From Mytilus edulis (taxonomy: Eukaryota), in NCBI RefSeq assembly GCF_963676685.1, contig NC_092347.1, positions 62,620,001-62,684,000 of the forward strand: a stretch of 64,000 nucleotides of DNA, in the 5' to 3' direction. Made by a program: the position numbers and the translations under genes. Below, piece by piece: positions 2,222 through 53,185 of this stretch. Positions within the stretch are counted from its first letter, which is position 1, and the number at the start of each line of letters is the position of its first letter. The notes under the pieces are model-generated. The model was not told where the DNA came from and searched no databases. It saw nothing but the letters and a program-made list of their open reading frames with translations.

Positions 2222-2703
2222 TAAACAAAGGCAACAGTACTATACCACTGTTCGAAATTCATAAATCGATTGAAAAAACAAACAAATCCGGGTTAGAAAC
2301 TAAAACTGAGGGAATCACATCGAATATAAGAGGAGAACTACGACACAACAGAAACAAAACATTGAAATGTAACTCACACAGAAACGAACTATGATATAAC
2401 AATAATGGCAATTTTCCTGACTTGGCTTTATAAATATTTGATATGAGCGTCACTGATGAGTCTTATGTAGACGAAACGCGCTTCTGGCGTACTAAACTAT
2501 AATCCTGGTACCTTTGATAACTATTGGTACAGGACATTTTAAAAAAAAAACAAAATGGTGGGTTGAACCTGGTTTTGTGGCATGCCAAACCTCCAGCTTT
2601 TATGGCAATGTTAAAGATAACATTAAAATGACAACATTACATGACAGGACTACAATACAAATAAATATATGAACATATAGGACAGAAAAACACGCGAATA
2701 GTA
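2222..2703 (-). mobile_element. Short non-autonomous retroelement carrying a twister fold (family C), interrupted by a hammerhead mini-element
   Basis: Reverse complement of 40345-40690. Twister landmarks GGAGGT-TTGGCATGCCA-CAAAACCAGGTTCAACCCACC...CCTGTACCAAGTCAGGA, split at 2426-2525. Confidence 0.75.
2445..2490 (+). ncRNA. Minimal type-I hammerhead ribozyme motif (stem III mutated)
   Basis: gcgtca-CTGATGA-gtct tatgt agac-GAAA-cgcgct-TC-tggcgt. Stem I gcgtca/tggcgt, stem II gtct/agac. The family palindromic stem III ACGCGCGT carries a G>T change here. Confidence 0.8.
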
Positions 2704-6050: not shown

Positions 6051-8379
6051 AAGCAGAATTATTAAATATAATACTCCATATATATTAAGACGAACTGTTT
6101 ACCAATTTCATTATTGTAGAATCATTATTTGTAAACTGCTTACTGAGTAATTTGCGTCATAGTTTTCACAGGAGAAAATTATTGTATATAAAAATAAGTA
6201 CTTGAATATATAGCTTTACAATTATATCTCCAACTATATGACTATATGATGCGATAATCATGTACTACTCTTTTTTTTTCATTCATAACACCACAAATAT
6301 TTAAGTATTTTTTTACGTGTAGAATCCTTTTTCCTTGTATATTTGTACTTATTCGAATCAAACAAAACGTAATGCTTTGAATGTTAATAGGAAAAAGTTT
6401 ATTCAACATACTAGTATTTAAAATATTTTTTTACTAGTTTACATATTACCATAGAATAATATTTTTCTTCAGCGATATATTGTCTTAAATTTAGAGCTGT
6501 TGTAGACAATACTTCAAAATTTATATCTTTTTGTAAAAGTTTGCATTTAAGGACATCGTTATCTAACTGAATAAATTATAAATTCAATATTCTATTAAGG
6601 CTCAGCACTTGTATACAATTAAACTTTTACATACTTTTTTTTTAGATGGGATCACATTAGAAATTATTGTGAATATATTAAATAAAGGCAACAGTAGTAT
6701 ACCGCTGTTCGAAACTCATAAATCGATCGAGAGAAAAAAAACAAATTTGGGTTACAAACTAAAATTAATTAGAATTGTCATTAACTTATATAGTAAAACA
6801 TTAACAAATGCGGCTATATATTTAAAAAAATATAAGAGAATTCTTGTTTCAATAATTTATTATTACAATATATGTTCAATAATGAACATCCCTTTTTAAT
6901 TAAGATGTTATTACATCACCAGCTGGTTTCATTACACTGTTTAATGTCGCTAACGTTGTCTGCAATTGGTACTAATTTGTATTATGACATATTATAACCG
7001 AATCCTTGAAGCATGCACAGGGAATTGTGCTATTGAAATTCTTTTTAAATATGAAAGTACCTCTAGATTGTAAAATAAATACAGCCTTATTGGGCCTGAT
7101 AAGTCTAACAATTTGAATATATATATAACAAACAATTTACGTGTATATAACTACTGTATGTTTATTCTTATTTCTATCGATGGCTAAAATGACTGTTGTT
7201 CATTGCCACTACCCAAATTTACTGCTTTCCTGACCGACTGGTCGGCTATCTTTTCTACTCTTTTTTTTTGTCTATAGCTCGTATAATAGTCCATAAACTG
7301 TTTGCTTTGCATGCATTTCCATTATAATATAATGCTTAAATATACTTAGTTTTCATACAGTATTATGGAGAAGACTTCATAATTATGATTTTTTTGTTGA
7401 TTTTTTTAAAATATAGCAAGTGAAATATGAATAAATCAACTACAGCCGACTTTATTTTTTTCCAAATTAGTTAATTTTTTTATACTGAATATGAATTATT
7501 TTTTGGATGTACAAGAAAACAACAACACGAAAAGCTAAAAAAAAAACCAAACAAATAAAAAACGCACAGGTCGCAAATTTTATTCAATCAATTACAACAA
7601 ATAATGCAACTATATATTCGATGCTTTTAAAATTATGTATTTTCTCTTTTAGCGATGACAGACACCCACATGATCTAGGATCAAACTTATCTCTCAGAAA
7701 TATTTCAACAGCAGCTTAAATACAATAGGTCATTACATGAGATCTTCCTTTGATCATGCTCTGTCTTGTATTAATTTGATTAAGAGGATTACCTTAATTA
7801 TTTATTTAATTAATTTCCATTGGCATGAGTTACACAGAGATATACGTGACACAGGTAGTTTTAGCAGACGACGATGTTATCAGTAAAGTCTTCCATCTTT
7901 ATAAAACTTGCGCTATAAGCTTCTTTTTTCCTGAAATGGGAATTAATTTTGTTTATTCTTCCAATAAAATCAGTTTTGTTTCAAAGAATTAAGAAGTCAC
8001 ACAGTAAAATTGAAATACTAAAGTAGCTTACGTAGGAGCTGGTTGCGAGTAATTTCAAGATATCTCGTTTTCTGTCATCCATATCTCTATTTTATACTGA
8101 CTTGCACAATTATCAACAGATAACATTTGACATTTAATTACTTTTTAACAATTTCAAAATGATCCGGGGAATTTTTATATAAAAAAATATAAGGGTTTTT
8201 ATCAAGGGTTTTCCATGTTGTTATAAAATATGGTCTCGTTGTAAAATGAATCATATAAAACTTTCATCTTAACATACTTATATGCTTGTTAAGTAACATA
8301 CTGTGGTACGGGTTGTGTGCATTATAACAAATGAAACTACAAAAATGTACTTACAATAAGCAACATGATGATCGCTTAA

Positions 8380-8465
8380 TGTTGAACGGGATCTGCTTTC
8401 TCTTCCGGAGCACCTGAGCTCAACCCCAATTTTTGGTGGGATCTGTGTAGCTCCATCTTTACTTT
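8380..8465 (+). repeat. Fragment of the Naiad 3' UTR structured motif
   Basis: ggatctgctttctcttccggagcacctgagctcaaccccaatttttggtggg matches 44766-44820. Confidence 0.65.
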
Positions 8466-11400
8466 TTTAAATAATTAATCAATTGTTTGTTTTTTTTTTT
8501 TTGGTTTTTTTTTCCCATTATTTCATCTTTCATTCTTCGAATTAGAAGTTCTTCCGTGTCTTTTGAAAACATATTTTTTTTCTTTTCTTAAAACACCCCT
8601 TTTTTGCTTCTGACAGAGACATTTGGACTGAATTATAGGTTCTAAGGACAACAAAACTAAACTAAATGCAGTACACGTTAGCTGTTTCTGTCACTCTTTT
8701 AGTTTTCTCTCCTTATCACCGTGACATTATCAAATAACGTAGTGCTGGAAATACTCTTGTAAAACAATCTTGATACTAGTAATCATATCAATAATATGTT
8801 TAATAAGTGCAACCAGACCATTGGAACAATGATACAACATTATTTGCAATACGAAATCATTATAACATTTATACAGAAATCAATGTTAAGAATTTCTGCG
8901 ATCCTAGAACTGCATTCAATTTGACGTTGTGAAATGCTTTTTAAATTAACATTATTTTATATAAATATTGCGTTCATGGTCAGTTTAAAGTCACTCTTAA
9001 CTAGGTCTTAAATCACGGATACTATATGAATTGATTCGTTAAGCATTATTTGTTTATTCAATCTGATTTTACCTTTCACAAAACATTTTTCATAAACCAT
9101 ATGCTATTTTCCAGTCAGTGATAATGAAGTTTCTACTTTCCAAAAGCACGATCATCCTTAATGATTATGTCTTTGTGAAAAAGACTTGAAATGATAGACG
9201 TCAATTAGCTAGCGATAGAATGTTTCGTTAGAGTTATAACAATTGTAAAAACCTAACCTCTTGTTTAAGGGTCAGACGGTGTGTGAAATTGATGCAAATA
9301 TCCATAAAATTATGCCCCTTTTGTGGTAACAACCATTCATTTACGCAAATTGTGTTTCAATATTTGTACAATTGTCAAGAGACTTAAGTATTTTACGGAA
9401 GGAATACCGCATTGGACAGCTACATTATATTTTAAAAGCGTTCTTTAGCTAAGAAAATTGTTAAATTGACTCCTTGATTGAACATCGTGTAACACAAATT
9501 AGTCAGAAAATTGATCAAATGGGTAGGCTTAATATCTAAGTGTTGCCCGTTGGCAGTTTGCAGCTCGTTGCTTAGTCTTATGAATACAGAGTGAAAAGTT
9601 GATGTCGACAAACTGACTATTAAATAAGACGATGATGGTAAAAATCTCTTGCCCTTCAATTATAGGTTTTTAGTTAAATTAAGATACATTATTTAGCTAC
9701 ATTCAGGAAACAATTAGATTGGCTCAAAAGAGAAATTCAATGTGACAAGATTTTTACTGAGGTTTAATCACAAACATCTAAAGTAGTATATCAATATTTC
9801 CTTTGTTAACCATAAAAACAAAATAAAATGGACCATTTTGTAGTTAGACAGTCTAATACACATACAGGGAAATTTGATTAAATGAATAAATAATTAAAAT
9901 ATCCGTATTACAGAAAACAATAAGTATATTTTTACATCAAATCCAAAAAACAAATGTGTATTTAGCAAGGTAAGACTCTAAAATCTTGTTTCATTGTGTT
10001 TTATGCAGACAATTTAATTTTTGATACTTTGAAATTTTAAAAGTCAAGATTTTACAAAAATATCAGACAAGGCAACAAAAGCATATTATATATTATATAT
10101 TGTAAAACCATCATCTCTAATATTGTAAAAACTTAATCGATATTATGGTTAAACATGTTAAAGACATAAGCGTAAATATTGTAAAAGGCAGAAGCGGTAA
10201 TATTGTGTAAGATACAATTTGTTATTTTAAAAAAAACCATAAACAAGGTTCTGTAAAAATAATTGAGATTAAATTGTAAAAACAAATATAAACTGTAATA
10301 TCACAGAAACTTCATTATTTTATAAAAGAACATAAACTATTTAGGGGTGTAAAAGTATAAGCGATAATATTGCTGGTTCACGATGTTGTAGTCAGCGTCA
10401 ATTGTTACGCTTGGCTATTCAATGTAGATCAGTGTGTGACCTTAGGTCGACCATCGACTTTGGTTTGCCGATTGTTAAAATCAATTTTAATCCTTGTAAG
10501 ATAACTCGAATTTTTAAACATTAATATTGTAGCATTTGTAATTTGTATAGAAATTAAGTATATAAAAAAATATTCGTCAAATGTATTAGCGTTAAAGAAT
10601 ACTATCTCATACGTCCTATCTTTCAGCGGTTTATAATTCATTGAATTAGATAGTAAATACAAAAAAGTAGTCATACATTTTTAAAATACTAATGAATGGT
10701 GAGTGCCCATATCAGTAACAATGACAATCGTCGTTGCTCAATGTCTGCGTAAAAAATCTTATCACGAAGTCAATTTGAATTATAATTCGCGAAAACTGTT
10801 TTGGATAATCCTCAAAGTTTTAGAAGTAATAACATTTTCTTGGGTACTTTTATCATTTAATGCTGATATCGATGGTTCAAACGAGATAGCATTCCTTTTT
10901 TCTTTTTTTCTTTTTTTTTTTTAGATATATGCATAATTGAAGTCAATTCAAAGTGTACTCGTCAAATCAAAATGTAAATAAATAAGAATTAAAAAATTAA
11001 ATATTAGTACGAGCCTTTCTGATTATGCAATTAATATACAAATAAAAAGAAATAAAAAGAAAATAACAGTCTAGCTTCCTTACTTTTTTTTATTTCCTGT
11101 AAAGATCGATAAGCACAGATTTATAACTCGTTAAGGGTAAATTATCTGTGTTCGCACAAGTTAATAATGTTATCATTAGTTGACAATAGAATATTTTCAC
11201 CAGACACATTTTATTTGTAGAGTGTTTATGTCGCTAGAGACAAAAATCAGACAAAATTGTCACACCTTGTCAACTTATATTTGTAGAATTATACCTTATA
11301 ATTGTATTTGCGAACTTATTTTCTATTTTCTTTCCTTGCAAAAGAAACTATTAATTTGATAAATACATATATTTCGTAAGCACAATCTAAGCGGTCGCAT

Positions 11401-12329: not shown

Positions 12330-12668
12330 GAATATTGTTTGTCGTTTCTTAGTGATTGGCATTGTAACACAATGTTGACTGCTGTATTTTTGACATTTTT
12401 ACCTATTATGTCTGTTTGTTTTGTTCACGCATCGTTGTCAAAATATTTGAATAATATGTAACTGTCATTCAAGTGAGAGATTTAGCTAGCTATAAAACAG
12501 TTTCAATCCACCATTTTCTACATTAGAAAATGCTTATACCAAGTCAGGAATATGACAGTTGTTTTCGATTTGTTTGACGTGTTTGAGCTTTTGATATTGC
12601 TATTTGATCATGGACTTTCGTTTTGAATTTTCCTCGGAGTTCGGTATTTTTGTGATTTTGTTTTTTTC
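12330..12668 (+). mobile_element. Short non-autonomous retroelement carrying a twister fold (family B); related copies at ~32080-32447 and ~34100-34462
   Basis: P5 aactgtcat/atgacagtt, GTGAGAG, palindrome TAGCTAGCTA, CAATCCACC, P3 cattttct/agaaaatg, TACCAAGTCAGGA. Three homologous copies in the window. Confidence 0.75.
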
Positions 12669-14291: not shown

Positions 14292-14532
14292 AAATAGTTA
14301 TCAAAGATACAAGGCTTATAAATTGATACACCAGGCGTGCGTTTCGTCTACAACAGACTCATCAGTGACCTTTGATCAAAATACTTAAAAGCCAAACAAA
14401 TAAAAAGTTGGAGAGCATTGAGGACTCGAAATTCCAAAACGTTGGGCCAGATACGGATAAGGTAATCTATGCCTGGGATAAGAAAATCCTTAGTATTTCG
14501 AATAATTCATACTTTTGCTAACAGTTTATAAA
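14292..14532 (-). mobile_element. Hammerhead-bearing retrozyme-like element (cleavage triplet mutated to GCC)
   Basis: Minus strand gtca-CTGATGA-gtct gttgt agac-GAAA-cgcacgcc-tggtgt at ~14328-14370, followed by the family tail ...tctttgataactattt. Confidence 0.75.
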
Positions 14533-17341: not shown

Positions 17342-17452
17342 TAAATAGTTATGAAAGGTACTATGATTATAATTTAGTATGCCAGACACGCGTTGTGTCT
17401 ACATAAGACTCATCAGTGACGCTCATATCAAAATATTTATAAAGCCAAACCA
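17342..17452 (-). mobile_element. 5'-truncated hammerhead mini-element (GAAA mutated to ACAA)
   Basis: Closely matches the reverse complement of 2426-2525. An empty-site paralogue lies at ~18055-18080. Confidence 0.75.
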
Positions 17453-22462: not shown

Positions 22463-22518
22463 GTAAATAGTTATCAAAGGTACCAGGATTATAATTTGGT
22501 ACGCCAGACGCGCGTTTC
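22463..22518 (-). repeat. 3' half of the hammerhead mini-element (GAAACGCGCGTC-tggcgt plus tail)
   Basis: Consensus palindromic stem III and GTC triplet; 5'-truncated before stem II. Confidence 0.7.
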
Positions 22519-24138: not shown

Positions 24139-24958
24139 AAGAAAGATAAGAAGTAAGCAATATCCTTTAACTTTACTTTCCGCTATATATATGATGTTCT
24201 CTCACTAAATAATACAAAATTTGGTGACTATGTTGAACGCATCTATCTGACCGAACTAGAGATAAAGGATACAATAGATACAGTTAAGTCGGCCTCATAT
24301 CTTGACTTACATCTAGAAATTGACAATGATGGTCAGTTGAAAACAAAACATTATAACAAAAGAGATGATTTTAGCTTTCCAATTGTGAACTTTCCATTTC
24401 TAAGTAGCAACATTCCAGCAACACCTGCATACAGGTTATATATCTCCCAATTGATACGATATTCCCGTGCTTGTATATCCTATCATGATTTTCTTGATAG
24501 AGGATTGCCGCTCACAAGGAAGCTATTAAACCAAGAGTTCCAAGTGGTGAAGTTGAAATCATCCCTTCGTAAATTTTACGGACGCCATCACGAGTTGGTT
24601 GACCGTTATGGAATAACCGCTTCACAGATGATATCGGATATGTTTCTTATGTCGTAACTACAATACCCTTCTCTAGCATGAATGTGACCTACCGAATTAG
24701 ACTATTTACCGGATTTGTTATAACATGAGCAATAGGACGGATGCCACATGTAGAGCAAGATATGCATACCCTGCCGGAGCACCTTAGATCAACCCCAGTT
24801 TTTTGTGGGGTTCGTGTTGCTTATTCTTTAGTTTTCTATGTTGTGTCATGTGTACTTTTGTTTGTCTGTTTGTCTTTTTCATTTTTAGCTATTACGTTTT
24901 CAGTTTATTTTCGATTTATGAGTTTGACTGTCCCTCTGGTATCTTTCGCCCCTCTTTT
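24139..24958 (+). mobile_element. 5'-truncated Naiad-type Penelope-like element (RT C-terminal half plus 3' UTR)
   Basis: FNFTFRYI(Y)DVLSLNN...YLDLHLEID...KRDDFSFPIVNFPFLSSNIP..AY..YISQLIRYSRAC...KFYGRHHELV, then stop at 24657 with no GIY-YIG. UTR matches 44667-44963. Confidence 0.9.
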
Positions 24959-25016: not shown

Positions 25017-25290
25017 TTAAAAGAAGAGCGAAAGATACAAGAGAGACAGGCAAACTCATAGATCGAAAATAAACTGACAACGCCATTGCTAAAAAGTAAA
25101 AAGGCAAACAGACACACACAAAAAGGACACAATACACAACATAGAAAAATAAAGACTAAGCATCACGAACCCCACCAAAAACTTGGGGTGATCTCAGGTG
25201 CTCCGGAAGGGTAAGCATATCCTACTCCATATGTGACACCTATCGTTTTGCTTATGTTTTTACAAACCCGGTAAATAGTCTAATTCTAAT
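25017..25290 (-). mobile_element. Naiad 3' UTR copy, inverted (tail-to-tail) relative to 24139-24958
   Basis: Reverse complement of ~24695-24958. Confidence 0.85.
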
Positions 25291-25739: not shown

Positions 25740-25936
25740 TATAAGAGGGGGCGAAAGATACCAGAGGGACAGTCAAACTAATAGATCGAAAATAAACTGA
25801 CAAAGCCATGGCTAAAAAGAAAAACACAAACAGACAAATAATAGAACACAATATACAACATAGAAAACTAAACACTAAGCACTAAGCAACACAAACCCCA
25901 CCAAAAACTGAGGGTGATCTACAGTGCTCCGGAAGT
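25740..25936 (-). mobile_element. Naiad 3' UTR terminal fragment
   Basis: Reverse complement of ~24775-24958. Confidence 0.85.
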
Positions 25937-26511
25937 GTTCAATAGTGTTTGAAGGTGGTTGTTAAATATCCTGTTTATATCAAAAATATAGTCTTCAGCA
26001 AAACATACCGACTCAAAGCAGAAAGTTAATATGTTGAATCATGAACAATGATTTTATTATTAATAATACAAAAAATCAAACTAATTTGGCCTTTGTAGAA
26101 GTAGATTTTTTTTAAAGTTCCACCCAGAGCAGATCAACTTGGAACCTTCAATATGAGAAAAGAACCTGCTTGTCTGGCAATGTGCCAGCCAGGGAATGTG
26201 GAGCGAAGGGTTTTCACCAGGAGATGTCACAACAAATAGCATCTTCCGAAAAAATAGTTTTTAACAAAGAGAATTTGTCATACCTTTTCATTATTTCAAT
26301 TCGTTTGTATTCATAATTGCGAGCATGTAGTCATCCTTAGATTATCACTATAAATATAAAATAAGGAAATATAGTTTGATTGACAATAAGATAAACATCC
26401 ACTGTTGTCCAAAGGGCTTATCACTGTAAATGAGGAAAGTTTTCACAAATACAAAAACCAACACTGTAAAAAAATCATTTTTAAATGATAAGAACACGTT
26501 ATAACTTTCAT

Positions 26512-37984: not shown

Positions 37985-39620
37985 GAACCAGACGAATCAG
38001 AACTGGACACTTTGTCTGAATGGATCAAAGCTATTCGATCGTGCATTCAGAAGCGCATTCAAACGTTACGATGTACTATGAGCACAAGAGTTACTAACCC
38101 TTTCAAGAATCCGGATGTTGTGGATGCTTTATCCTCTTTGCATGACAAATATGTAGTGTTCCAGCAGATAAAGCCTCTAATAATATTGTCTTCATATGTA
38201 AAAACCATTATTTGCAATGTCTCATAACAGAGCTTGGAATAAATAGAACAAAGGGTAATCCTACATATTCCTTAACATCATTTACCAAAGACAAAATTTT
38301 ACAAAATCACAAATCTGTCCTTTTTTCTTTTGGTATCAACATCAAAGAAAAAGAAGAAAATTTACCATCATTATACTGGATACCAAAACTACACAAACTC
38401 CATATAAAGAACGATACATAGCTGGATCGTCAAAATGTTCGACTTAACACCTTTCTAAAATACTGACTACTATTATTTCTACAGTTAAAGATAGGCTTCA
38501 AAAATATTGTGATGAGATATATTCTACTAGTGGTGTTAAGCAGATGTTGATTCTCAAAAATTCGAAAGATCTACTGCTTAATCTTCGATCAAAATCTTTG
38601 CAATTTTGCAGCAACATAAAAACTTTAGATTTTTCTTAACTTTAAACTACTATTCCCCATGTTCAGTAAACAAAGCTATTTCTATAAAAATGGGAATCGT
38701 AGATACTAATTTCTTGTTTTTGGTTACAATAGTTCATATTTTGTGAAGAACCACACTGAATCTACCAGAAAGCATACTGAAGATGATATTATCAAAATGC
38801 GGGACTTTTTGATCGACAATATATTTGTTGAGTTTGGAGAATTCATATTTCAACAGACAATCGGTATTCCAAAGAGTACTAATTGTGCACCCCTACTAGC
38901 CGATTTGTTTCTGTTCTCGTATGAAGCAGAATTCATTCAAACCCTTCTAAAAGACTAACAGAAAAAGCACCATGCGAAATTCTTAAATTTCACTTTCCGA
39001 TATATTGATAATGTCCTATCATTGAATAACTCATATTTCAGCCAGTACTTGCATCTCATAAATCCCAGTGAACTTGAAATTAAGGATACTACTGATACTA
39101 AAAGGACTTCTTCAAACCTTGATCTTTTCCTCAATATTGACACAGATGGACGACTTCACACGAAAATCTATGATAAACGGGACGATTTCAACTTCCCAAT
39201 TATCAATTTCTTATTTCTCAGCAGTAAAATACCCTCTGCCCCTTCGTATGGTGTTTACATATCTCAATTGATACGTTATTCTCGTGCATGTTCACACTAT
39301 ACGGACTTAATATACAGGAGTGTGCTTCTAACGCAGAAAATGCTCCAACAAAGTTATGAGGAGGACAGATTAAAAATGACACTCCGTAAATTTTACGGAC
39401 ACCATCACGAATTGGTTGATCCATACGATGTATCTTTATCCAAACTAACTATGGACATTTTTACCACGTGTTAGATTGTGGTTTGTCATTACGTCGTCTG
39501 ATCTTTTTATTACCGAACGTGACTTATTCCCGAATGTGACCGTTTTGCTGAGTGTGAATTCGTATTACTTTAAGACGTGGCACGGTACTTTTCCATCCCA
39601 AATTAATTTGTTGGGTTTTC
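37985..39620 (+). mobile_element. Decayed Naiad-type Penelope-like element, near-complete RT region, 5'-truncated
   Basis: LSEWIK..., DKYVV.PADKASNNIVFICK, LPSLYWIPKLHK.PYKERYIAGS.KCST, ILKNSKDLL, DNIFVEFG.FIFQQTIGIP..TNCAPLLADLFL, FRYIDNVLS, YDKRDDFNFPI, then stop at 39474. Frameshifts and stops throughout. Confidence 0.92.
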
Positions 39621-40109
39621 ATGTTGTGTTCTTTTTTGTTGTCATCGGATTTTGTCAAATGTCTTAACGTTTGTAGTTGTAAATCGTATTTTTGCTGTTG
39701 TATTAATGTGTTGTGTTGGGGATAACTACTCATCCAGTTCATTTGGTAGATTTAATTTTGGATCAACGAAATTTACACGATATATTTGGTTTGCAGTTTG
39801 ATCAGAAGAAACACCGACAAAGCTAGATAATACAATTAATTATCTAATTACTACTTACTACAATTAAATATTAATTAGTATTATAATTTTCACTGTAATT
39901 AATATAAGTTATATAAGTCATACAAATCTAATCTTGAATTTCATCTAAATTCTTTCTTGATTTTCGGCACACGTTTTAGAAATTTAAATGTGACGTCACG
40001 TCACTTTGGGCGTTGCAATGACTATGGCTAACACGGCTGTGATTGTCATGTATTCGTTTTTATTCTTTAGCTAGTCACCACTTTAGTTTAATCATGTTTT
40101 TCTATTATA

Positions 40110-41274: not shown

Positions 41275-43533
41275 TTAAAAAAGTTCATTTTCTTCTCATT
41301 TTTTTAAATATTTATGCTTGGCATAACTACAATTTATATATGCGTATGTAAACTACGAGTTGGTGCTTAATTTGAATATTGAATCCAAAAAAAGAAATAA
41401 ATACATAACTTTCTAATTTACAATGGTCATGACCAAACACGTATTGTAAAAATACTTATATGGTCTGGAACATCCCCGTAGTGTTTAACAGGTCCTTAAT
41501 GAATATATTATATTTTCTATTTTGTTAACTTATTTATTTATTTGAAATCATACTCTAAACAGTCAAGACAAACACATTAAAACGAAAAGTTGTTATAGAA
41601 AAACATACAAGCGTATCAAAATTAAATAGTTGAATTGTGAAAAAAAAACTTCGTTTAACACTGCAACAATTTCATCCGCTCGTCCCATGTAAGAAACCTC
41701 TTAGTATTTTAGTTGATTAATAATTGATAACAGATCTTGATTCTTTCTTTAAAGTCTCAGAAAGATTTATTTTTTGAATTTTTATATTCAAACCTATCCC
41801 TTGTAGACTTTAAAGTGCCCTTTTTATGACTTTTGGGTTTCTTTTTTCTTTGGTCTTTGGATTGAAGTCTCAACAAAGTGATACCTCATCTTCTTCTCTT
41901 CATATGACACTTTGTGAAGTGTATTATTGATGCTTATAACAGTACGCACCATTTAACATTGTTCTACAACAAAAACAGATTGCCTTCAGAAATATGGTGA
42001 TTAGGTATATACAATCAATGATGTCAATCAAATATTGATTCGTAACAAATTTAATTGAACTCCAACATCTCTAATCACAATCTTTACAATTTTGCAGTTA
42101 CATCAAACCCTTTGACTTTTCTTTGCTTCACACTGCTTTTCTCAACTGCATCTTCTCATTCAACAGAGTTTTTTTCTACAAGATATGAATTCTTAAATTC
42201 CTTTCTGTTATATATAGCAAAATATTTTGATTAATACCAAACTGATTCCAAAAACAAATACATCTAAGAGGGTATCATCAAAATTTTGTGCTTTTTAATG
42301 ACAACATATATGTACTTCAAGATAAGTCATGTTTTTGTTATCCGGCTTTTATTACTTGTTTATCATTCAAAATTTACAATCTCAAAAAACTTTTGTATAT
42401 ATATATGCCAGACAGCTCAGTATTGTGTGTGTTCAGAGTCAATAATATGCATTTTTTATTGATATTGTTTACTTATTTCTATGCAATAACATCATTGGGG
42501 ACAAGGGAGAAACATACATGAATATGAAAATATAATGACATAGACAATTTAAACCTTGTATGTTTTATGTTTGCATCTGGCGCAAATACACAATTTTAAT
42601 CCCAGTATCTATGATGAGTTTATTTACTTATTTCGTTTATATAATAGTTGTGTATAACACAGTAACACTCTTTTGTACGCAACTGATGAAAAAACGTACA
42701 ACTATGTTTATTATTGTGTCTTTTCCCTTCTTTAAAGGTCATTTTCTTTTGATTGTTATAACCTTTATCATTGTTATATAGACAATTAATGTATACGTCC
42801 TTGGTGCCAAACTGTGATTTAATAAAAAGAGATCTCGTGAAAGATATCAGGTATACAATTTTGTACGCAAGACTCTTGTTTCGTCTACCAAACACTAAGC
42901 AGTGACTATCGAACAAAAAAAAGTACAACACGATAAGGTGCAGGATTTCTCGAATAGCATAGAAAATGTTTGGTCATATGGACGATAAATCTGACATTGG
43001 AAACTTTTTCTACTGATCGCCATTATAAAAAGGGAATGGTTGAGATCTGAAAAAAACAACCTTCAAAATCTTCAATCTTGTGGTCTAAGAGATCTTTCTA
43101 TACAAGCATAGACGTTTAATCTGTAAATTGACTGATTGTTTGTTGTTTCAAGTTGTGACATTTTGACTGAGTTTGAATTATGCATGGCGTTAAATGAATG
43201 CATGGAAAAAAAGTTAACATTTCAGTACACTTACTCTCGCTTCTTATAAAGTTTATGAGAGTCAACTTGTTTTTAATATTTTCTATGATTTGGTTTTGCC
43301 TAATAGATGTACGAGATTTGAACGTCGGTTATTAATGTCGCCTCAATTTACAAAAGCTTCACTTTGTCTTTCCAAGGGTTTGCCTGATATCTCTTAATTT
43401 TGATGCCAGTCGAATGTTACATTCTTTTTTTCACAAGACTATATTTTAATGATTACATGGGTTTTTTTTTGCCCTGGTGATACATTATATACCCATAATT
43501 CAAAACAAGTCCTATCCCTTTTGAACGGGCATC

Positions 43534-44963
43534 TTCCATCACTGTATTGGATACCTAAACTGCATAAGTGTCCTTACAAACAACGGTATATTGCTAGGTC
43601 TTCCAAGTGCTCCACAAAATTATTCTAAATTATTAACATCTATTTTATCAGCAAGCAAAGACGGGCTTTAAAAGTATTGTGAAACTGCCTATTCTAGAGG
43701 TGGCGTGAATCAGATGTGGATACTCAAAAATTCCAAAAATCTTTAAGAGTACATACAATCTTACTCTCTTTCATCTTGTTATAGTATTAAAACATTTGAC
43801 TTTTCTACATTTTACACAAGTATTCCACATTCCAAACTAAAAGACAAACTGAAAGAGTTGGCATTGCTTTGTTGCATAAATACAATGGCCAACGTAGATA
43901 CAAGTATCTTGTCTTAGAAGGGATAAATCCTACTTTGTAAAGGATCACTCTGATTCAAACAAAACATTCTCTGAAACTGACATTATCAAGATGCTTGATT
44001 TCTTGATTGACAACAAAGTTGTTACGTTCAGAGGACGTGTTTTTCAACAGACTATCGACATTCCAATGGGAACGAATTGTTCCCCTCTTCTTGCCGACTT
44101 GTTTCTTTATTATTATGAGGCTGACTTCATACAGGAACTTCTTAGAAAGAAAGATAAGAAGTAAGCAATATCCTTTAACTCTACTTTCCGCTATATAGAT
44201 GATGTTCTTTCACTAAATAATTCAAAATTTGGTTACTATGTTAATCGCATCTATCCCATTGAACTAGAGATAAAGGATACAACAGATACAGTTAAGTCAG
44301 TCTCATATCTTTACTTACATCTAGAAATTGACAATGAGGGTCAGTTGAAAACAAAACTTTACGACAAAAGAGATGATTTTTATCTTTCCAATTGTGAACT
44401 TTCCATTTCTACGTAGCAACATTCCAGCAGCACCTGTATACGGTGTATATATCTCCCAGTTGATAAGGTATATCCGTGCTTGCATTTCCTATCATGATGT
44501 TTTTGATGGAGGGTTGTTGCTGACAAGGAAGCTATTAAATCAAGAGTTCCAAATGGTGAAATTGAAATCATCACTTTGTAAATTTTACGAACGCCATCAC
44601 GATTTGGCTGACCGTTATGAAATAACCGTTTCACAAATGATATCGGATATGTTCCTTACGTCGTAACTACAATCCCCTTCCGTTTCATGAATGTGACCTA
44701 CCGAATAAGACTATTTACCGGATTTGTTATCACATAAGCAACACGACGTGTGCCACATGTGGAGCAGGATCTGCTTACCCTTCTGAAGCACCTGAGATAA
44801 CCCCTAATTTTTGGTGGGGTTCGTGTTGTTTATTCTTTAGTTTTCAATGTTGTGTCATATGTACTATTGTTTGTCTGTTTGCTTTTTCATTTTTAGCCAT
44901 GGCGTTGTCAGTTTATTTTCGATTTATGAGTTTGACTGTCCCTCTGGTATCTTTCGTCCCTCA
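43534..44963 (+). mobile_element. 5'-truncated Naiad-type Penelope-like element (RT plus full 3' UTR)
   Basis: LPSLYWIPKLHKCPYKQRYIA.SSKCSTK, NQMWILKNSK, IKTFDFST.YTSIPH, QQTI.IPMGTNC.PLLADLFL, FRYIDDVLSLNN, KLYDKRDDF; stop at 44666. Boundaries defined by the empty site at ~48053-48070. Confidence 0.95.
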
Positions 44964-45707: not shown

Positions 45708-46545
45708 AAGACAATAACAATCAAAAACAAGGAGAAAACAAAGACTAACAAAACCAAAGGACATTTACATAATAGATAAGAAACAACACGAACTCTACTA
45801 AAAACCGGAAGTGAAATCAGGTGCTCCGGAAGGGTAGTCATTTCCTGCACCGTATACGGCACCCGTCGTGTTATTTCTTTGTTATTTCGGTAATGATGGA
45901 AGGTTATTATGACTGAGGAAGAATATCAGATATGATTTCTGACACACTTTTGTCATAATTGCCAATCAGCTCATGATGGAGACCGTAAAATATCTTGAGT
46001 GATGACCTTAATTTGATTGATTCATAGCCCTGTCTTAGGAACTTTTGAGAAAGCAGTATTTCTCGTTCAACAAAATGAACGTACTTTGAGCTAGTTCTAG
46101 AGTAACGTATCACTTGCGACACAAATACTCCATATGCTGGTGCCGCTGGGATGTTGCTACACAGAAATGGAAAGTTGACTATAGGAAAATTAAAATCATT
46201 GCTTCTAAATATGAAGCAGAATTATCTGTGTCGGTAGTATCATTAATTTCAAGTTCACTTGGATATATTAAATGTAAGTGATCTCTGAATCTATTATTAT
46301 TTAAGAGACAGTACATCATCAATATACCGAAAGGTGAAATTAAAAGGCTAATTTCTTTTCTCCTTTCTGTACAAGCCCTTGGATAAATTCTGCTTCATAG
46401 GAATACAAAAACAAATCTGCAAATAGAGGAGCGCAATTGGTACCCATTGGGATTCCAATAGTCTGTTGGAAGACCAAACCTCCAAATTAAACAAATATGT
46501 TGTCAATTAAAAAGTCCAGCATGGCAGTGATATCTTCTTCGGTTT
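45708..46545 (-). mobile_element. Truncated Naiad-type Penelope-like element of a second family
   Basis: Minus strand TEEDITAMLDFLIDNIFV*FGGLVFQQTIGIPMGTNCAPL.ADLFLYSYEAEFIQ...FRYIDDVLS...DFNFPIVNFPFLCSNIPAAPAYGV...ILPQS* (45907), then structured UTR at 45778-45880. Confidence 0.92.
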
Positions 46546-46717: not shown

Positions 46718-47680
46718 TACATCAAAGAGGATATCATAACATGCTATATTTATATCGATTCTACAATATAGTTGTGGAGTTTGGTCGATTGATATTTCAT
46801 CAGACGGTTGATTTTACAATATAGTTGTGGAGTTTGGTGAATTGATATTTCATCAGACAGTTGATTTTTCAATATAGCTGTGGAGTTTGGTGAATTGATA
46901 TTTCATCAGACAGTTGATTTTACAATATAGTTGTGGAGTTTGGTAGATTGATATTTCATCAGAAAGTTGGTTTTACAATATAGTTGTGGAGTTTGGTGGA
47001 TTGATATTTCATCAGACAGTTGATTTTACAAAAAAGTTGTGGAGTTTGGTGGATTGATATTTCATCAGATAGTTGATTTTACAATATAGTTGTGGAGTTT
47101 GGTGGATTGATATTTCATCAGACAGTTGATTTTACAATATAGTTGTGGAGTTTGGTGGATTGATATTTCATCAGACAGTTGATTTTACAATATAGTTGTG
47201 GAGTTTGGTGGATTGATATTTTATCAGAAAGTTGGTTTTACAATATAGTTGTGGAGTTTGGTGGATTGATATTTCATCAGAAAGTTGGTTTTACAATATA
47301 GTTGTGGAGTTTGGTGGATTGATATTTTATCAGACAGTTGGTTTTACAATATAGTTGTGGAGTTTGGTGGATTGATATTTCATCAGACAGTTGATTTTAC
47401 AATATAGTTGTGGAGTTTAGTGGATTGATATTTCATCAGACGGTTGATTTTACAATATAGTTGTGGAGTTTGGTCGATTGATATTTCATCAGACAGTTGA
47501 TTTTACAATATAGTTGTGGAGTTTAGTGGATTGATATTTCATCAGACGGTTGATTTTACAATATAGTTGTGGAGTTTAGTGGATTGATATTTCATCAGAC
47601 GGTTGATTTTACAATATAGTTGTGGAGTTTGGTGGCTTGATATTTTATCAGACACTTGGTACTGGAATGGGTACTAATTC
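46718..47680 (+). repeat. 53-bp minisatellite (~17 copies, 46761-47654) embedded in and derived from a PLE RT coding fragment
   Basis: Unit TTTTACAATATAGTTGTGGAGTTTGGTGGATTGATATTTCATCAGACAGTTGA reads NIVVEFGGLIFHQTV. Flanks read ..EDII.ML upstream and QTLG.GMGTN downstream. Confidence 0.92.
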
Positions 47681-49829: not shown

Positions 49830-49997
49830 TTCAAACGTTTAGGAACTTTGATACCGTCAATGCTCTTCAACTTCGTACTTTATTTTGCCTTTTTAACTTT
49901 TTTTGGATTGGAGCGTCACTGATGAGACTTTTGTAGACGAAACGCACGTATGGCGTTAATACAAAATTTTATCCTGGTATCTATGATGAGTTTATTT
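49830..49997 (+). mobile_element. Hammerhead-bearing retrozyme-like element
   Basis: Family body plus tail atcctggtatctatgatgagtttattt. Confidence 0.75.
49911..49956 (+). ncRNA. Minimal type-I hammerhead ribozyme with complete catalytic core (GUA triplet, predicted cut after 49950)
   Basis: gagcgtca-CTGATGA-gact tttgt agac-GAAA-cgcacg-TA-tggcgt; one mismatch in stem II. Confidence 0.8.
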
Positions 49998-52399: not shown

Positions 52400-53185
52400 T
52401 AGGAATATATTACCTCAGAAACTTACAAAACCTTTGAATAGACTTATTAAGAAGGGATATGATTACGATACTGTTGTCAAGTCATTAAAGATTGCATATT
52501 TTGGCGTTAATATTGAGTCACTGATAAGGTCTTTGCATCGGAACTAAACACATTTATTCTAAAAACAGTTGTTGGCATGACACGGGTTATGTTCTTCTCA
52601 TATATGTTATGATGGTATGATACTAAACCCCTAACGGGAAGGATTGTGCCTGATGTTCATATGATGAAATCATAATCTTTCAGTCAGTTTAATTGAAGTC
52701 TGGAGCTGGCATGTCAGTTAACTGCTAGTAGTTTGTTGTTATTTATGTATTATTGTCATTTTGTTTATTTTCTTTGGTTACATCTTCTGACATCAGACTC
52801 GGACTTCTCTTGAACTGAATTTTAATGTGCGTATTGTTATGCGTTTACTTTTCTACATTGGTTAGAGGTATAGGGGGAGGGTTGAGATCTCACAAACATG
52901 TTTAACCCCGCCGCATTTTTGCGCCTGTCCCAAGTCAGGAGCCTCTGGCCTTTGTTAGTCTTGTATTATTTTAATTTTAGTTTCTTGTGTACAATTTGGA
53001 AATTAGTATGGCGTTCATTATCACTGGACTAGTATATATTTGTTTAGGGGCCAGCTGAAGGACGCCTCCGGGTGCGAGAATTTCTCGCTACATTGAAGAC
53101 CTGTTGGTGACCCTCTGCTGTTGTTTTTTATTTGGTCGGGTTGTTGTCTCTTTGACACATTCCCCATTTCCATTCTCAATTTTAT
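52400..53185 (+). mobile_element. Young 5'-truncated Penelope-like element 3' portion: ORF C-terminus (..PQKLTKPLNRLIKKGYDYDTVVKSLKIAYFGVNIESLIRSLHRN*) plus 640-nt 3' UTR with twister and four-way motif
   Basis: ORF end at 52547 conserved in the copy at 437-1205. Near-identical tail at 41120-41274. PLE assignment is inference from the shared 3' terminal motif and the 5'-truncation pattern. Confidence 0.75.
52861..52949 (+). ncRNA. Twister ribozyme, type-P5 permutation, intact core; predicted cleavage U52903^A52904
   Basis: P5 gttagaggt/gcctctggc; P2 GGGG(52873-76)/CCCC(52906-09); G-A-GGG (52877-81); U^AA; P3 gca-tttt-tgc; P4 CCTG-TCCCAAGT-CAGG-A. Matches the twister consensus (compare rice UAACACUGCC..GCCGGUCCCAAGCCCGGA..AGUGGAGGG). 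Confidence 0.85.

Follow-up and report, generated by a model that had tools for sequence, protein, structure and literature searches.

Among small self-cleaving RNAs, nine classes are well studied and one has been proposed, as counted in the available part of PMC10085705. The described system closest to the RNA reported here is the dimer-type minimal hammerhead found in the pLTRs of Penelope-like elements (Cervera and de la Pena 2014, PMC4209133; PMC6765202). According to the portions of those papers available to us, these hammerheads occupy the same place in the same kind of element, have palindromic loops and cleave weakly, as dimers; the palindromic segment is predicted to make them act as dimers on tandem transcripts, as is predicted for our motif, and a route through circles and tandems has been proposed. 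Naiads are defined by an N-terminal GIY-YIG domain, a CCHH finger, CxC and DKA motifs, a C-terminal RT and an arrangement in head-to-tail tandems, and the accessible text of the paper describing them reports no canonical hammerhead (Craig et al. 2021, PMC8557442). The element considered here matches that description, and the motif itself is not described in the same text. It is a conserved pseudoknotted RNA in the Naiad 3′ UTR with a covarying closing stem (P1), a covarying pseudoknot and two palindromes. Compared with the hammerheads as they appear in those sources, it lacks CUGANGA and a conserved GAAA, contains two palindromes rather than one short loop, and has a 5-bp pseudoknot; its cleavage is predicted.

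The window, by which we mean the whole 64,000-nucleotide stretch of Mytilus edulis DNA that was analysed, contains the motif on the plus strand at 44734-44833. It follows a 5′-truncated, frameshifted RT fragment of a family A Naiad (43500-44666, the start being approximate; stop codon 44664-44666; plus strand), the pieces of which match an intact 1000-aa ORF at 86-97% in tblastn. The closing stem P1 has 13 bp (44734-44746 with 44821-44833) and covaries across families. Inside it lie, in order, a conserved CGGGTG strand (44747-44752) with possible partners at 44789-44794 or, alternatively, at 44776-44780; the 10-nt palindrome 1 (44753-44762), all five pairs of which covary and for which an intermolecular duplex is predicted; a 3-bp RGC/GCT stem (44763-44775) whose 7-nt loop is made up of a conserved AG and the pseudoknot 5′ strand (44768-44772); a conserved YACYC segment (44776-44780), a candidate part of the core or else the alternative GGGTG partner; the palindrome 2 region (44781-44788), which reads TCCGGA in the family form; a conserved CACCYG strand (44789-44794); the pseudoknot 3′ strand (44795-44799); and the P5 arm, a CCCC/GGGG hairpin of variable length (44800-44820) that abuts the pseudoknot strand and P1 without linkers. 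The rest of the family A 3′ UTR runs from 44834 to the fixed element end at 44962. Like the frameshifted RT beside it, this copy is decayed, with a G>T change at 44749, damage within palindrome 2 and an altered base at 44799, the last of the pseudoknot 3′ strand. A previous reading made from the sequence only had put the stem, palindrome 1 and the CCCC/GGGG hairpin where we find them. Its secondary structure was nevertheless incomplete, the pseudoknot and palindrome 2 having been missed, and its distance of about 70 nt from the RT stop holds for family A but not for family B. In family A the motif begins 68 nt past the stop, and the fixed 3′ end follows 130 nt after it; the corresponding values for family B are about 28 nt and 70 nt.

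An intact family A unit is found in a head-to-tail array of 3370-bp units (loci L213/L214, G000:C1:404500-420900). The array is young: its units are more than 99.8% alike, the 1000-aa frame is intact, and the first unit is 5′-truncated. The encoded protein has the Naiad order of N-terminal GIY-YIG, CCHH finger, CxC, DKA and C-terminal RT. Pfam places GIY-YIG at aa 135-172 (E 0.034) and RVT_1 at aa 645-854 (E 8.5e-5), both under the cut-off, and the translation contains CTC (the CxC linker) and ADKAP (the DKA motif); five short fragments from the window gave no Pfam match. Across the genome there are 90 exact Naiad head-to-tail junctions as well as 5′-truncated tandems (pLTR), and the head-to-tail arrays contain one motif per unit.

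A second family, B, has an RT that is 58-63% identical to that of family A in the C-terminal part. Its motif copy in the window lies on the minus strand at 45778-45879, with the palindrome at 45850-45859, an intact pseudoknot (GAAA/TTTC) and a damaged GCT strand. The closing stem differs from that of family A on both sides, as had been claimed along with the change in the palindrome; the proposed end at 45880 has to be moved to 45879, and the stem has 14 bp. A tandem array of 53-bp units (46757-47660) is located immediately upstream of the family B RT fragment. Further copies are a degenerate family A motif at 24726-24830 (plus) after an RT fragment at 24157-24657, its inverted partner at 25158-25255 (minus), a 5′-truncated copy with only the 3′ half of the motif at 25880-25938 (minus) and a strongly degenerate one at 8356-8466 (plus). 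The covariance model that we built finds four copies in the window and gives no score for the last two.

The central block, previously described as conserved, has five matches to a 20-nt stretch in the window against none in 100 shuffles; outside this genome, however, the block varies, and it holds a covarying pseudoknot strand and palindrome 2. A 16-nt part of the core matches the 1.37-Gb genome exactly at 10,861 places, and its reversed control at none. These matches belong to two main transposon families, A (as at 44734) and B (as at 45778, minus), and a small third one. Because they are transposon copies, their number is no evidence of function; the differences between families are. A sample of 120 copies included 80 family A copies with the whole core, and 34 of these 80 kept either common form unchanged. 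Two patterns for further motif families in the genome returned mostly mutated A and B copies and one small third family.

Homologues beyond the window, which the sequence-only reading had proposed to collect, are found in other animals and in metagenomes. According to a text search by eye of the PMC8557442 supplement, 12 of 54 published Naiad consensi, spread over four phyla, carry the motif at their 3′ ends (two consensi from Clytia, five from bivalves, four from hemichordates and one from a fish); line breaks in that file may hide more, and some names were assigned from file order. A gapped pattern matched at least 119 metagenome loci, and among the matches listed, 34 of 119 show a Naiad-like RT inside the 300-600 nt flank. 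Viral contigs gave no match, and one with a looser pattern, in which neither palindrome nor pseudoknot pairing was seen by eye. Three matches in GTDB genomes were taken as chance, none having palindrome 1 or pseudoknot pairing; one of them (L210) scores 22.3 bits with the covariance model because it was picked by the same pattern.

In the metagenome pattern only the conserved letters were prescribed and all other positions could vary, and the 120 hits were clustered on their flanks alone into 43 clusters, many of which are decayed copies of the same few families. As the covarying positions were left free, the set constitutes an independent, out-of-sample test. Among the matches listed, 31 of 43 clusters show perfect pairing between the 4 nt that follow GCAG and the 4 nt that follow CACCTGA (a mean of 8.7 and a maximum of 19 across 20,000 shuffles). 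The pseudoknot has 5 bp, the fifth pair being U-A, C-G, U-G or a mismatch in the published consensi as available. Among the same matches, 34 of 43 clusters have a self-complementary central tetranucleotide in palindrome 1 (shuffled 7.7), and 22 of 43 have a palindrome of at least 6 nt (palindrome 2, 6-8 nt) directly ahead of CACC (shuffled 3.4). When 20 of the 43 clusters were hand-picked as distinct families, 99.2% of cells pair, compared with 78.2% in shuffles that ignore relatedness and 29-42% when slid. In this hand-picked set all five palindrome 1 pairs and four of the five pseudoknot pairs change on both sides. The linker-free junction between P1 and the variable arm is present in 16 of the 20 representatives and beats shuffled sequences at p <=0.05 in 10 of 20. 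Covariation at free positions, together with the lack of any Rfam assignment, bears out the earlier claim of a conserved, covarying and unassigned RNA structure in Naiad 3′ UTRs.

The invariant helices show no covariation, and their invariance in the metagenome matches is imposed by the search pattern. For GGGTG, CACCYG and YACYC fit equally well as mutually exclusive partners; because covariation is absent, we infer both pairings. The YACYC pyrimidines are likewise fixed by the pattern in the metagenome set, and both occur as C or T in the 12 published consensi as far as these are available. For palindrome 1, folding energies for five sequences are 0 to -1.2 kcal/mol as a hairpin and -9.4 to -18.1 kcal/mol as a duplex. 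A hairpin could not include the innermost pairs, and the duplex is by far the more stable form; the simplest interpretation is therefore intermolecular pairing, and dimerisation through palindrome 1 is predicted.

The distribution of G-U pairs favours the sense strand. It is pertinent to the idea, to which we assign very little probability, that the conservation reflects splice signals, promoter elements or other DNA-level sites and not an RNA fold. The splice consensus resembles GTRAG and CAGGTG, and these are the reverse complements of the motif's CTYAC and CACCTG. Penelope-like pLTRs are also known to contain introns (PMC8557442, available text). Signals in DNA or at splice sites, however, fail to explain a covarying pseudoknot, the G-U pairs and palindromes of free sequence, and no spliced joint falls at these positions among the joints listed from the RNA reads, which are a weak test.

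What other elements carry in the same 3′ slot bears on the function of the motif. An element elsewhere in the window contains a twister-P5-like RNA (52873-52939, plus) whose P1 region consists of two perfect 10-nt palindromes (52883-52892 and 52894-52903). It matches Rfam Twister-P5 (RF02684) at E 0.0038 with 23.1 bits on short input, under the gathering score of 37.6, and is a candidate obligate-dimer twister as judged from its palindromes. Upstream in the same segment (52599-52939, plus) are an RT-like ORF end and a SECIS-like hairpin (Rfam E 0.017); tblastn with the family A Naiad protein found no match there. A second twister-like form scores weakly (E 0.085) and, by eye, ends five published bivalve consensi in the available file. 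The earlier statement that sister families have a twister and a 10-nt palindrome in this slot thus agrees with two sub-threshold scores and with the consensi. The twister-like tail of the published Naiad_Mgal consensus has 1385 exact matches in the genome; a search of the whole genome with Rfam Twister-P5, run without a working control, gave no match. Degenerate twister-like tails occur in the window at 12533, 34326 and 3900 (all plus) and at loci L480-L494, among which L488-L490 have the Naiad_Mgal-type tail as 207-bp tandem repeats.

By the covariance model, the motif is absent from three loci with the second twister form and from three family C loci. RT-end identity to family A is 60% for the twister-form family and 67% for family C, against 63% for the motif-bearing family B. 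The lack of the motif in close relatives (six loci in two Naiad families with RTs 60-67% identical) suggests that the slot is exchanged as a module. Portability is also evident outside Naiads. At L138 (93-479) the motif follows an ORF end that is not Naiad RT and has no Pfam match, presumably resembling an RLE-type non-LTR endonuclease, and at L136 (3-146) it follows a ubiquitin hydrolase domain (Pfam UCH E 4.4e-9). Locus L154 has two copies 425 nt apart as well as an inverted repeat; the pseudoknot strands of the two copies differ yet pair, and its 823 nt contain no RT. The locus resembles a non-autonomous, retrozyme-type element based on the motif. A third Naiad family, with intact 1007-aa frames (window 38959-39800, plus; L215-L244), lacks the motif, and Rfam finds nothing in its 3′ UTR; the near-palindrome of 14 nt that follows CTGA in these elements is possibly another unassigned motif.

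The slot holds dimer-type hammerheads in other Penelope-like elements and a twister-P5-like RNA in another element of the window. We favour, as somewhat the more probable reading, that the motif is a self-cleaving ribozyme of an undescribed structural class, which would be gated by dimer formation and cut tandem transcripts to unit length. Against this reading, some motifs near ribozyme contexts gave no cleavage on testing (PMC6765202).

Rfam returns nothing credible over the motif in the window or in the 20 representatives (E 5), nor in the intact copy (E 10), and no match to hatchet, hairpin, VS, glmS or SECIS; the one hit over the family B copy, CrcZ at E 0.79, is not credible. No known catalytic core is recognisable by Rfam or by the hammerhead blocks in the 20 representatives. 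These blocks, as defined in the available text of PMC10085705, were compared in any permutation: CUGANGA is present on neither strand in any of the 20, four published consensi, as available, have CUGG or CCGG at the place compared, and GAAA occurs somewhere in 6 of 20 but never as a conserved column.

Twister requires a U-A step in L1 and two pseudoknots (PMC5408937, available part). The motif has no such step next to P1, where CGGGTG follows in 20 of 20 representatives; T2 (GC/GC) and the conserved L4 are absent from the alignment, and there is no Rfam twister score, though the sister RNA scores. With the type-P5 twister (RF02684; PMC5408937, as far as available), including that at 52873-52939, the motif shares the 3′ slot, two palindromes and the pairing of a hairpin loop to a strand after the main stem; it differs in lacking the U-A cleavage loop, T2 and the AAGC-type loop and in that a further arm separates the pseudoknot strand from P1. 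Its 5-bp pseudoknot is topologically similar to T1, but is on the other side of the loop compared with the T1 of the twister P4 loop.

In pistol, a purine-G precedes and G40-C41-G42 follows the pseudoknot strand, and G33 and C41 pair at a three-way junction (PMC6795133, PMC6154101). In the motif, AG and GC flank the pseudoknot strand in the manner of R32-G33 and G40-C41, and there is a possible three-way junction with a two-nucleotide step ahead of a stem. The third base is U rather than G42 in 20 of 20 representatives, where the pattern fixed it, and in the 12 consensi available; the pseudoknot has 5 bp instead of 6, its partner strand lies between CACCYG and the P5 arm rather than in the P1 hairpin loop, the strand order differs, and the setting is a eukaryotic retroelement. 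The pistol-like AG/GC is the best lead to a putative catalytic core. It is improbable, in our estimate, that the motif is a known ribozyme in rewired form, in which case a non-circularly permuted pistol would be the most plausible and a twister derivative less likely. Such rewiring would draw on the AG before and GCU after the pseudoknot strand, on an alternative fold with a three-way junction, on a helix order that recalls twister P2-P3-P4-P5 with T1 (PMC5408937, available part), and on the non-circular permutations known for hammerheads (PMC10085705, available part); it is opposed by the structural differences already listed, by the lack of the conserved twister adenines, and by the fact that Rfam, given short input and a limit as loose as E 10, scores neither pistol nor twister.

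HDV-like ribozymes have a P4 and a J4/2 with the catalytic C before the P2 3′ strand. The motif has neither, its CACCYG strand running without a linker into the pseudoknot strand, and there is no Rfam score. In common with the HDV-like ribozymes of retrotransposons (context PMC6765202), it has a G-U pair close to the base of its first stem, and its second helix is a crossing one. Twister sister and lantern have a two-strand internal loop between P1 and P2 and no pseudoknot (PMC11620745, PMC6154101, available parts), whereas the motif has a covarying pseudoknot and lacks that loop. The judgement by eye that it fits none of hammerhead, twister, HDV, pistol and SECIS is upheld. The openly accessible literature, as far as searched, contains no description of the motif, and the accessible parts of a 2026 retrozyme preprint and of PMC7229834 do not mention it. 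It is an undescribed, widely conserved RNA matching no RNA catalogued in Rfam, although the HRIMA motifs of PMC10085705 may include a relative that Rfam lacks.

In the ribozyme that we favour, a transcript running from an upstream partial copy (pLTR) through the body would contain two motifs. Base-pairing at both palindromes would join them in a symmetric dimer, which would build the active site from the conserved AG, GCU and YAC around the pseudoknot, perhaps triggered by a switch of GGGTG from CACCYG to YACYC. The same bond would be cut in both copies; a pistol-like reading would place it at U/G 44751-44752 and an HDV-like reading at C/G 44747-44748. The unit-length RNA would then be ligated to a circle or copied by template jumping, yielding 5′-truncated tandem insertions, and a lone motif on the unit RNA would remain uncut.

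If a linear template started at the motif cut, 5′ ends should pile up there. Of the 90 junctions, 85 were evaluated and five inner array units set aside. At 67 of the 85 the start of the upstream copy lies 5′ to the conserved C of the motif, and the copy runs through the motif, as a circular template predicts; the ten upstream-copy ends inside the motif each fall at a different base. There is no 5′-end pile-up in the motif, with at most two ends per position, either in these 85 upstream partial copies or in 120 copies on contig C1 located through their 3′ ends, namely the first 90 from a list of 7111 matches and the first 30 from one of 1443. Such scatter means that the DNA retains no mark of a cut. 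It excludes a linear template ending in the motif and does not prove a circle: a circle made by ligation, precise template jumps and a motif without any cleavage are all equally compatible with it. RNA reads from four raw runs (6-18% of each) show no end pile-up in the motif, a weak test since they read through dead copies on both strands; most continue into unlike sequence, and they barely cover the 5′ part of the element. At position 6844 of the intact array (L213), six or seven first mates from two RNA runs of one study start 30 nt beyond the fixed element end, in the hairpin that opens the next unit; an RNA end or a single locus is possible.

The scatter of ends is relevant to the alternative that the RNA is not catalytic. 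It could be a dimerisation or packaging signal, or a site of the Naiad RT-endonuclease that pairs two RNAs for RT jumps and so gives tandem copies. We regard this as unlikely, though less so than a rewired known class. It would account for two covarying self-complementary segments, the unrecognisable catalytic core and RT that reads through the motif without a fixed stop, and precise template jumps would likewise yield head-to-tail arrays. Several features speak against it. The fixed 3′ end is another 70-130 nt downstream of the motif; Naiad families whose RTs are 60-67% identical lack the motif, and elements with non-Naiad ORFs can have it; its roughly 20 conserved core nucleotides and its pseudoknot are more than dimerisation would need; and sister elements carry ribozyme-like RNAs in the slot. 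The RT-binding role previously suggested is weakened in particular, because the motif sits 70-130 nt before the element end and also follows ORFs without Naiad RT.

A bolder form of the ribozyme reading, which we put forward tentatively and as rather less than an even prospect, is that the motif would be the first obligate symmetric-dimer ribozyme in animal genomes, with a two-palindrome lock and a strand switch, and that it may be swapped among Naiads and other retroelements with twister and hammerhead modules sharing the lock for making unit-length circles. The two-palindrome design is also seen on the twister-like RNA in the window, which suggests a general two-copy lock; such a lock would make tandem formation in Penelope-like elements directly testable. 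Shorter than 100 nt and strongly covarying from cnidarians through molluscs and hemichordates to a fish, the motif is a candidate beyond the roughly ten known classes, and cleavage, if real, would explain RNA processing in Naiads, which were reported without hammerheads. Even if it does not cut, it would represent a conserved and hitherto undescribed module for RNA dimerisation in a dominant group of retroelements.

Finally, we note that the window also contains a family of type I hammerhead repeats, represented at 2447-2490 (plus; Rfam E 0.0021) with related copies near 14300-14395, 17344-17448, 22466-22518 and 49885-49987, which are probably the known mussel retrozyme.
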